64,000 nt of DNA from Giardia intestinalis (Eukaryota): the NCBI GenBank assembly GCA_000002435.2, contig CM018789.1. One strand, 5' to 3'. The translations under genes were made by a program, and so were the position numbers. The notes beneath the pieces are model-generated. The model did not search any database and was not told the DNA's origin. It saw only the letters and a program-made list of their open reading frames with translations. The first letter of the stretch is position 1, and each line of letters begins with the position of its first letter. Shown piece after piece: positions 36,561-38,057 of the stretch.

Positions 36561-38057
36561 ATGTGGATATTTGTGGCTTTAGCACTTGCTTTATCGAATA
36601 CACCCGTGCGCTGCCTTGAGGATCAGTATTATGGGCTATGGAGTTTTACGCTATCGCGCCAATTTGAAGTTACTACGGACACTCTCGAGTGCGAAACGTC
36701 TATCCCGAAAGACGGAGACAAGATTTATTTGACCCTCCTGCCAAAGGGTATTGCGTACACAAGTGGAGGTCGTGCAGGGCGGTGGAGCCCCGTGTACATG
36801 GCTGGTGTCGATATCCTAATCGAAGGCATGCGTTATTTTTTCCTAAGTAAGACAGTCACAATATCGTCTGAGGGACACGCAAAGACAGTGTCCATCTGTA
36901 GCGAAAGCCAACCAGGGCATGGCTGGGCCCGCCAAGATGGTATAAAGAGCAGATATCAGAATTGTTTATATGCTGCTCTGATACAGCCCTTGGTTCCAAA
37001 CGCAACAAATATTAATAGTCAGGACCTCACGCGGCTACATATGTACGCTCCTGCGAGTGATTATGGGTCCCCACAGGGCTTTGACATGCACTACGGAGAC
37101 CCGCCCCCTGCGGCCTGGTCGTGGGGGGACGTCGGCGGGGCCTCGTTCCTCCCGGCCGCGCCGCCCGCCTCCCCCGGCCGGGGGTGCAACAGCAGCTACG
37201 TGGAGGCGGCGCTGGCGGCCATGATGGCGCGCGTGATGGTCGCGAGCAACCGGACAGACCCGCTCGGGCAGCAGACGTTCCTCTCCGCCCGCCACGTCCT
37301 CGACTGCAGCCAGTACGGCCAGGGCTGCGCGGGTGGCTATTTTGAAGGGGTGGGATTGTTTGCAGAAACCTATGGTATCTTAACCACCGATGCTTATCCT
37401 GCCAGGCCCGGTGATAATGTACGATATTGTTCAGTGCCTGCCCAAGCCTCACGTCGATATTTTTTCACAAATTATTACCCAATTGGAGGATATTTGGGAG
37501 CCGTCACATCGCCGTCAGAGATAATGTGGGAAATTTACCGCAATGGTCCTGTTATAGCAGGAATTAAGCCTAACAGTGATTGGTACTCTTGCAAGCACAC
37601 CACAGAAGAGGATTTTCTGCCCTCTTCTTATCCCACCACAAGCACAGGCTTCCCAAACAGACGATACTTCTATGCAGATGTATCCTACGGTGTAGTCATT
37701 ATCGGCTGGGGTACAGATGAAATTAATGGTGATTACTGGTTAGTCCTCGATCCACTCTCCACCAGAAAAAGCAGCTGTCCAGATAGGATCCGGAAGATTG
37801 CACGGGGCATCAATGCATTTAACATAGAGAGTTATGTTGGAGGGGCAAACTGGGTGCCTCTGCCGGACCTTCTTACTACGCATCCAAACAAATTGGTCAT
37901 TCAGCAAACATTTTTAATCTGCCTCTTTGTGGCAGATATTGTTTCCGCAGCGGTTTCTATTCTGTCGGTAATTCTAGTATGTAGTGTTATTAAGAAAAGA
38001 AAAACATTGAGCGTGAGCACCTCTTCGTGTCTAATGATGTCTGACCATGCATTATAG
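36561..38057 (+). CDS. Cathepsin C (DPP-I)-like papain-family protein, paralogue 2 (inverted relative to paralogue 1); same Cys->Ser nucleophile substitution
   Basis: The track start at 36537 is TTG; the first in-frame ATG is at ~36561. It gives the signal peptide 'MWIFVALALALSN'. The exclusion-domain motif is 'RCLEDQYYGLWSFT'. The active-site block 'GDPPPAAWSWGDVGG...GRGCNSSYVEAALAAMMARVMVASN...VLDCSQYGQGCAGG' is identical to paralogue 1. 'VVIIGWGTDEINGDYWLVLDP' carries the His motif. 'RKIARGINAFNIESYV' is also shared. C-terminal TM 'ICLFVADIVSAAVSILSVILVCSVI'. Confidence 0.8.
   Translation: MWIFVALALALSNTPVRCLEDQYYGLWSFTLSRQFEVTTDTLECETSIPKDGDKIYLTLLPKGIAYTSGGRAGRWSPVYMAGVDILIEGMRYFFLSKTVTISSEGHAKTVSICSESQPGHGWARQDGIKSRYQNCLYAALIQPLVPNATNINSQDLTRLHMYAPASDYGSPQGFDMHYGDPPPAAWSWGDVGGASFLPAAPPASPGRGCNSSYVEAALAAMMARVMVASNRTDPLGQQTFLSARHVLDCSQYGQGCAGGYFEGVGLFAETYGILTTDAYPARPGDNVRYCSVPAQASRRYFFTNYYPIGGYLGAVTSPSEIMWEIYRNGPVIAGIKPNSDWYSCKHTTEEDFLPSSYPTTSTGFPNRRYFYADVSYGVVIIGWGTDEINGDYWLVLDPLSTRKSSCPDRIRKIARGINAFNIESYVGGANWVPLPDLLTTHPNKLVIQQTFLICLFVADIVSAAVSILSVILVCSVIKKRKTLSVSTSSCLMMSDHAL
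37095..37333. repeat. Copy 2 of the ~239-bp GC-rich tract (inverted partner of 27563..27801)
   Basis: See copy 1. The tract encodes 'GDPPPAAWSWGDVGGASFLPAAPPASPGRGCNSSYVEAALAAMMARVMVASNRTDPLGQQTFLSARHVLDCSQYGQGCAG' in both genes. It also produces duplicated spurious ORFs in other frames (27491..27775/37121..37345 and 27601..27804/37035..37295). Confidence 0.85.

Follow-up and report, generated by a model that had tools for sequence, protein, structure and literature searches.

Inverted, serine-substituted cathepsin C paralogues in Giardia intestinalis with a remodelled active site and a shared GC-rich tract

The window analyzed here, a 64,000-nucleotide stretch of contig CM018789.1 from Giardia intestinalis (Giardia duodenalis; GenBank assembly GCA_000002435.2), contains two oppositely oriented genes encoding cathepsin C-like proteins of 573 and 498 amino acids (aa) in which serine replaces the catalytic cysteine. 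They are inverted and diverged paralogues belonging to the membrane-anchored type of cathepsin C that characterizes diplomonads. As Ser-substituted papain-family proteins they belong to a known kind; what stands out is a conserved, possibly convergent signature of four residues and a well-delimited conversion tract. The genes and their membrane anchors are located as follows.

26686..28407, minus strand: 573-aa serine-type (Ser-type) cathepsin C paralogue, supported by its open reading frame, Pfam families PF08773 and PF00112 and a fold match to dipeptidyl-peptidase I (DPPI)
36561..38057, plus strand: 498-aa Ser-type cathepsin C paralogue, supported by its open reading frame, Pfam and the starts of its orthologues
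26899..26955, minus strand: transmembrane segment at the C-terminal end of the 573-aa protein, with a mean hydropathy of 3.06 and a 70-aa tail behind it
37923..37979, plus strand: transmembrane segment of 19 residues at the C-terminal end of the 498-aa protein, with a mean hydropathy of 2.54 and a 25-aa tail behind it

Overall identity between the two proteins is 42%, and their genes are essentially unalignable at the DNA level outside a shared repeat. Each consists of a signal-like N-terminus, an exclusion domain, a papain-fold domain, a transmembrane helix and a tail, and both retain the GCxGG motif and the invariant cysteines of the papain fold. Scores for Peptidase_C1 (PF00112) are 49.6 and 53.7 bits against a gathering cut-off of 20.7, and CathepsinC_exc (PF08773) scores 43.8 bits in both proteins against a cut-off of 27. 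The 573-aa protein is predicted to adopt the DPPI fold: the top PDB matches of its AlphaFold2 model (pLDDT 75, pTM 0.74) in Foldseek are rat DPPI 1jqp (TMt 0.85) and human 3pdf (TMt 0.83), and its transmembrane segment sits inside a long helix predicted at residues 473-521. The plus-strand gene starts at ATG 36561, in agreement with the orthologues P0001 and P0002, which begin with MW; for the same reason a TTG start at 36537, which opens the mechanically called frame 36537-38057, was rejected. The 573-aa protein is 100% identical to P0003, the NCBI G. duodenalis record named 'Encystation-specific protease'. Franzén et al. (2009) reported recombination between two dipeptidyl-peptidase I precursor genes, GL50803_22553 and GL50803_28651 (PMC2723961). 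Because the recombining pair of genes annotated as dipeptidyl-peptidase I lies in the window, we identify the two window genes jointly with this published pair, individual assignment aside.

Catalytic residues are replaced in both proteins. To locate them, we used HMMER alignments to rat and human DPPI and a MAFFT alignment of 256 cathepsin C members, which were gathered by an exhaustive representative search and a search seeded with P0009. Word-indexed protein searches with the window protein and with alignment A2 returned six Giardia-like proteins only. The window copies represent assemblage A, and the comparison genomes are assemblage E (P15) and a B-like metagenome contig. The following positions were assigned.

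37194..37196, plus strand: Ser212 (AGC), nucleophile position of the 498-aa copy, from the alignments
27700..27702, minus strand: Ser236 (AGC), nucleophile position of the 573-aa copy, from the alignments
37188..37190, plus strand: Asn210 in place of the Gly of CGSC, 498-aa copy, forming an N-X-S sequon with Ser212
27706..27708, minus strand: Asn234 in place of the Gly of CGSC, 573-aa copy, N-X-S sequon
37176..37178, plus strand: Gly206, position of the oxyanion-hole Gln, 498-aa copy (Asp in assemblage E)
27718..27720, minus strand: Gly230, position of the oxyanion-hole Gln, 573-aa copy
37686..37688, plus strand: Tyr376 (TAC), position of the catalytic His, 498-aa copy
27181..27183, minus strand: His409 (CAC), catalytic His, retained in the 573-aa copy
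37749..37751, plus strand: Asp397, position of the triad Asn, 498-aa copy
27118..27120, minus strand: Asp430, position of the triad Asn, 573-aa copy
37791..37793, plus strand: Arg411 in place of the conserved Phe/Ile of the G-Y-F-R-I strand, found in Ser-type copies only, 498-aa copy
27076..27078, minus strand: Arg444, Ser-type-specific Arg, 573-aa copy

The window proteins share with DPPI (MEROPS C1; rat 1jqp, human 3pdf and 1k3b) the exclusion and papain-fold domains, the first cysteine of CGSC and the GCxGG motif. In contrast to DPPI, they carry a C-terminal transmembrane anchor with a cytosolic tail, and their active sites differ. The CGSCY motif of DPPI aligns with CNSSY in the window proteins, replacing the nucleophile (human Cys234) with Ser; VRNQ aligns with SPGR, replacing the oxyanion Gln (human Gln228) with Gly; and KNSWG aligns with LDPAR or LDPLS, replacing the triad Asn (human Asn403) with Asp and removing the Trp, which presumably shields the His-Asn pair. 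A preliminary description of this DNA had read changes at the same three positions from a hand alignment, and the HMMER and 256-sequence alignments bear them out: that alignment was unshifted, and the nucleophile column holds no Cys in either protein. It had also taken the His motif to be retained in both. This is correct for the 573-aa copy, where TNHAVLLVGYG of DPPI aligns with TNHTVLIVGWG and the catalytic His (human His381) is kept, but not for the 498-aa copy, where it aligns with VSYGVVIIGWG and the His has become Tyr in all three assemblages. The first Cys of CNSS was considered as a shifted nucleophile and rejected, as it corresponds to the first Cys of CGSC, an invariant residue that we take to be a disulphide cysteine. 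The Ser codon AGC is a single step from TGC, and the Tyr codon TAC a single step from CAC. At the nucleophile and triad columns of the 256-sequence alignment, Cys/Asn occurs in 231 members, Ser/Asp in 12 and Ser/Asn in one. Judged from these columns, neither protein is a cysteine peptidase.

The altered active site is conserved and has been rebuilt rather than randomly degraded. In a 30-sequence alignment, four residues are exclusive to all fornicate Ser-type proteins, namely Asn234, Ser236, Asp430 and Arg444 in the numbering of the 573-aa protein. All four are invariant among the assemblages, the Ser codon being AGC in both copies of all three; the position of the former Gln varies between Gly and Asp. 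The open reading frames of both genes are intact in assemblages A and E and in the B-like contig, and the ratio of nonsynonymous to synonymous divergence (dN/dS) outside the tract is 0.08-0.13 for both genes across A, E and B, a range that shows them to be maintained by purifying selection. The N-terminal motif DTPxxC is also affected. In DPPI its aspartate, Asp1, binds the free amino terminus of the substrate. The motif is present in every fornicate cysteine-type (Cys-type) protein examined and absent from the 573-aa copy, from the G. muris protein P0013, and from P0168 and P0010; in the 498-aa copy it is degenerate, with Asn in assemblage A and Asp kept in E and B. We infer that neither window protein acts as a dipeptidyl-aminopeptidase.

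Ser-type variants also occur outside the fornicates. A paralogue of DPP1 in the opossum Monodelphis domestica (P0040 / P0158) has independently acquired a Ser nucleophile and an Asp at the triad Asn, together with Phe at the His and His at the Gln positions; it reads SSYNPSNC in place of SSDTPANC, so that Asp1 is lost, and the normal opossum DPP1 (P0250) is canonical. In Thrips palmi, P0236 is the sole homologue in the 256-sequence set that combines a Ser nucleophile with canonical Gly, His, Asn, Trp and Phe; this Ser may be genuine or may stem from a problem of annotation or sequencing.

An intact cathepsin C is encoded elsewhere in the G. duodenalis genome. The preliminary description had proposed a comparison with the organism's other cathepsin C genes, and this leads to the encystation-specific cysteine protease ESCP (GL50803_14566), for which a YRPI tail and a transmembrane anchor have been described (PMC6115752). 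The ESCP sequence Q95WU9 (P0163) has Gln-Cys-His-Asn at the catalytic positions, a DTPAWC N-terminus and a C-terminal KYRPIIA; its gene lies outside the window, and its assemblage B counterpart P0162 is 84% identical. ESCP and the window proteins come from the same species, have the same membrane-anchored cathepsin C architecture and belong to the fornicate clade, but they are only about 30% identical, and the window proteins lack both the catalytic Cys and the YRPI sorting motif. The label 'Encystation-specific protease' on the 573-aa protein is to be read as a transfer by homology, and canonical cathepsin C activity in this organism is probably supplied by ESCP as a separate Cys-type gene. 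The anchor itself had been regarded as unusual for cathepsin C. This view does not hold for fornicates, where all cathepsin C proteins examined (Giardia, Spironucleus, Hexamita, Dysnectes and several Logan/JGI contigs) have one, in the form of a C-terminal hydrophobic 19-mer of mean hydropathy 2.5-3.5 followed by a short tail. No such C-terminal hydrophobic segment is found in the metazoan and heterolobosean homologues examined.

The Ser-type state is found in more than one genomic context. On G. muris contig CM016925.1 (L006, 10001-14268), a Ser-type gene of 477 aa and a Cys-type gene of 541 aa lie on the same strand 1.2 kb apart. Among the G. muris proteins, P0013 has Gln-Ser-His-Asp and an FRPIVA tail, and P0014 has Cys-His-Asn and a YRPIL tail. 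The G. muris Ser-type gene occupies the slot that in G. duodenalis (L004) holds the Cys-type ESCP, with the Cys-type copy located 1.2 kb downstream. Two upstream neighbours of the slot are orthologous in the two species (E values 3e-25 and 6e-41), and on the downstream side a neighbour of the same size and orientation shows weak similarity (6e-4). The Ser state is therefore not confined to one orthologous lineage. By sliding-window identity, the G. muris Ser-type protein is nearest to ESCP along nearly its entire length, with the exception of the surroundings of the signature residues. A further pair is present in the Giardia-like run SRR31929897, whose contigs are compact, intron-poor and 53-55% GC, and which encodes a Ser-type protein (P0010, contig L007) and a Cys-type protein (P0007, contig L001) that resembles the 573-aa protein outside the active site. 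None of the neighbours on L001 recurs in the window, and L007 has only a copine-like gene in common with it, 54-71% identical to the window gene 14942-15706.

Codon usage and trees leave several routes to this distribution. The nucleophile Ser is encoded by AGC or AGT in G. duodenalis, G. muris and P0168 and by TCA in P0010; the AGY and TCA serine classes cannot be interconverted in a single step without leaving Ser. Neighbour-joining trees (200 bootstraps), which are not decisive, group the G. duodenalis pair outside the tract with the Cys-type P0007 and a Hexamita protein (52-74% support) and the G. muris Ser-type with ESCP (78% support), whereas for the tract alone all Ser-types group together (60-64% support). 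Possible origins of the signature are repeated gain, short conversions between paralogues, or an old Ser-type lineage scrambled by conversion.

The two genes share a GC-rich inverted repeat, in frame within both open reading frames. Its arms and the intervening segment are located as follows.

37095..37336, plus strand: conversion tract, plus arm (nt 535-776 of the 498-aa coding sequence; residues 179-259), GC 0.77, GC at third codon positions (GC3) 0.95
27560..27801, minus strand: conversion tract, minus arm (nt 607-848 of the 573-aa coding sequence; residues 203-283), from the repeat finder
27802..37094, no strand assigned: 9.3-kb segment between the inverted arms, with four genes whose order is kept in assemblages E and B

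The repeat finder delimits 242 nt, which in a base-by-base view comprise 239 perfectly matching bases, a mismatch at 37334 and two further matches. The perfect arms are 37095-37333 and 27563-27801, and the former is exactly the interval that had been singled out beforehand. The substituted residues had been placed inside this tract; Ser, the Gly at the former Gln position and Asn at -2 do lie within it, but Tyr/His, Asp and Arg lie outside. Across a tract of about 243 nt, the two arms differ by 0-2 bases within each of assemblages A, E and B. Between assemblages, 14-27 tract substitutions are found that are common to both copies, and assembly collapse as the source of the identity was rejected on this ground. 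Tract boundaries, from GGAGAC to GGYGG, are identical in the three assemblages, and the flanks are unalignable. The distribution of substitutions identifies the tract as a product of concerted evolution by repeated conversion after the assemblage split.

Composition and divergence set the tract apart from the rest of the two genes. GC is 0.73-0.77 in the tract against 0.43-0.46 elsewhere, GC3 is 0.89-0.95 against 0.39-0.46, and synonymous divergence (dS) between assemblages is 0.12-0.27 against 0.47-1.84, 4-12 times lower in the tract. The low dS would fit GC-biased conversion that holds third positions at G or C; a constraint at the DNA or RNA level is also possible. GC-richness as a general property of this cathepsin C region was rejected, since the homologous region of the single-copy ESCP has a GC3 of 0.49. 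Because neither this region nor that of the G. muris-like Ser-type gene is enriched, the composition of the tract is tied to the converting pair, in line with what GC-biased conversion predicts. In a G. muris-like genome (run SRR30592944), the first ~140 codons of the P0168 gene (L005, 491-910) have a GC3 of 0.85-0.97 against 0.35-0.75 downstream, and this stretch, which encodes the exclusion domain, is possibly a further tract of conversion, shared with a paralogue of the same genome.

Since the arms are inverted and in frame, a crossover within the tract would invert the 9.3-kb spacer and exchange the 3' halves of the two genes. How much recombination takes place in Giardia is debated. In isolate GS, 'hybrid proteases' arising from recombination of the two genes were detected beside the WB-like arrangement (PMC2723961). 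We infer that the tract is the crossover site, or supplies the homology, for this published inversion-type recombination. A comparable system is palindrome P6 of the human Y chromosome, whose inverted copies are kept nearly identical by recurrent GC-biased conversion with occasional inversion of the spacer (PMC3723533). Unlike P6, the Giardia tract spans only about 240 nt, lies inside the reading frames of paralogues that are saturated everywhere else, and is cut off sharply at the same points in all three assemblages.

Several other features are found near the pair or elsewhere in the window. The 498-aa paralogue lies between two kinase-plus-ankyrin-repeat genes, at 34853-36526 (plus strand) and 39747-42224 (minus strand). 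In G. muris, a kinase-ankyrin gene of comparable kind comes after the Cys-type copy (L006, 14301-17030), a likeness that may reflect shared ankyrin repeats alone. A third GC-rich island is present at 52901-53320, with GC up to 0.74, and contains a tRNA-Leu gene at 53206-53289 (minus strand); in the remaining ~300 nt of the island, 52901-53205, nothing besides the tRNA-Leu reached Rfam thresholds.

Taken together, we favor, with a probability of about 0.6, the reading that the two genes are inverted paralogues encoding non-proteolytic proteins with a rebuilt centre and sharing a tract maintained by GC-biased conversion. For both proteins, loss of proteolytic function is the most likely state. 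The 498-aa copy is in practice certain to be non-catalytic, to judge from its sequence, because both the nucleophile and the general base are lost. The 573-aa copy and the Ser-types of G. muris and SRR31929897 keep Ser-His-Asp and may have some hydrolytic chemistry. Both window proteins would have a non-proteolytic role as type I membrane proteins whose cleft for binding peptides is still on display. Their rebuilt centre comprises the changes of Gln to Gly, Gly(-2) to Asn, Cys to Ser, Asn to Asp and Phe of the neighbouring strand to Arg, with loss of the Trp of NSWG, a lost or degenerate Asp1 and, in the 498-aa copy only, His replaced by Tyr. Recurrent GC-biased conversion would prevent the two proteins from diverging in the N-terminal half of their catalytic domain, Asn-x-Ser included. 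The preliminary description had proposed either inactive binders or decoys or Ser-nucleophile variants. This pair of options still covers the evidence, but for the 498-aa copy catalysis is very unlikely without the His.

Ser-substituted papain-family proteins in other organisms provide precedents. SERA5 of Plasmodium is soluble and keeps the triad Asn. Like the window proteins, SERA5 and the other serine-type SERAs are parasite papain-family proteins with a Ser nucleophile that are under selection and coexist with Cys-type paralogues (PMC4671257). They differ in belonging to another C1 subfamily that has no exclusion domain, and the window proteins add the changes of Asn to Asp, Phe to Arg and Gly to Asn. 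Silicatein alpha is secreted and likewise keeps the Asn. This sponge cathepsin L homologue is a natural Cys-to-Ser switch on the papain fold with a new, non-proteolytic chemistry (PMC9825947), and a silicatein structure, 6zq3, is among the predicted Foldseek fold matches of the 573-aa model. As a cathepsin L-type protein, however, it is unrelated to the cathepsin C architecture. In SERA5, which has the same Cys-to-Ser change on a papain fold, protease activity is undetectable and the mutation Ser596Ala is tolerated (PMC4671257), and serine triads almost never operate in the Nδ configuration used by papain (PMC9825947). Our full-text searches found no report of a Giardia cathepsin C with a replaced catalytic cysteine, Touz 2002 and DuBois 2008 lying outside their scope.

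A number of points weigh against a non-proteolytic role under GC-biased conversion. Ser, Asp and, in the 573-aa type, His are strictly conserved over deep divergence, and Asp, Arg and Asn have been gained, as would be the case in a working hydrolase. The oxyanion Gln is still present in the G. muris Ser-type and in P0010. The GC bias of the conversion is read from base composition. Literature searches found no published activity, localization or expression data on the two window genes.

The strongest alternative, which we regard as unlikely, takes the 573-aa type and its counterparts in G. muris and SRR31929897 to be serine-type hydrolases with a Ser-His-Asp triad on the papain fold. Here the poorer nucleophile would be activated by Asp, itself held in place by Arg, and Asn(-2) would replace or supplement the oxyanion hole. 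Such an enzyme, being without Asp1, would be an endopeptidase, an esterase or similar, and the Ser-Tyr-Asp 498-aa copy would be its non-catalytic partner, for example in a cathepsin-C-like oligomer. The conserved residues and the kept oxyanion Gln just described favor this alternative along with the strong purifying selection, as does the joint occurrence of Ser and Asp in all 12 Ser/Asp cases against 231 Cys-types with Asn. The His is conserved outside the 498-aa clade. In addition, the four residues recur in copies that differ in synteny, flank affinity and Ser codon class, which looks like selection for a defined site. In G. duodenalis, however, the oxyanion Gln is lost and its position drifts between Gly and Asp among assemblages; the Trp, the presumed shield of the His-Asn pair, is gone; and the loop preceding the nucleophile is modelled at low confidence (mean pLDDT 67 for residues 221-230 of the 573-aa model). 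Natural Cys-to-Ser switches with reported or disputed activity are known in the C1 family (PMC9825947), but the inactivity of SERA5 and the rarity of Nδ-configured serine triads tell against catalysis here.

More tentatively still, Asn-x-Ser, Asp and Arg may form a coherent alternative centre on the cathepsin C fold, catalytic or binding, rather than a relic, one that was independently installed or micro-converted in at least two or three paralogue lineages of Giardia-like diplomonads. The lineages concerned are the G. duodenalis window pair, the G. muris gene in the ESCP slot and P0010 with its TCA codon. We consider this doubtful.

A variant of the non-proteolytic role appears improbable. 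Here, Cys-Asn-[Ser/Thr]-Ser would have been selected as an N-X-S sequon, and a short Giardia N-glycan on Asn(-2) would fill the cleft, resulting in a permanently closed, non-catalytic scaffold or receptor. An N-X-S sequon is indeed found here in every fornicate Ser-type and in no Cys-type, and the genetic code implies that Ser is the sole sequon-competent residue one mutation away from a Cys codon. Selection for a sequon leaves the co-occurring Asp and Arg and the kept His unexplained, though, and the opossum Ser-type paralogue has Ser and Asp without a sequon; glycoproteomic data were not found in the literature. Pseudogene decay under relaxed constraint, or an artefact of sequencing, of assembly collapse or of misalignment, would account for the loss of canonical catalytic residues and nothing beyond, and is refuted by intact reading frames with a dN/dS of about 0.1 in three independently assembled genomes, AGC in both copies of three assemblages and AGT or AGC in G. 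muris-type genes, assemblage-specific substitutions shared by the arms, which collapse cannot produce, and agreement of three alignment methods on the catalytic columns.

Two Giardia genes listed among the 'cathepsin C-like cysteine proteases' do not belong there, and one of them bears the name of ESCP. Because neither can be a cysteine protease, any protease inventory, inhibitor study or list of drug targets in which they figure is off. The sharply bounded tract of 240 nt with a GC3 of 0.95, homogenized in three assemblages and probably linked to a documented rearrangement, represents a compact, assayable marker of ongoing homologous recombination with apparently GC-biased conversion. The recurrence of the same four-residue set across differing positions, flanks and Ser codon classes amounts to a natural experiment, open to testing, on whether a papain fold can acquire a Ser-His-Asp centre or how a pseudoprotease site is stabilized. 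If the 573-aa protein were a Ser-His-Asp hydrolase with Asn as oxyanion helper, it would be an example of a papain-type cysteine peptidase having become a serine hydrolase in nature.

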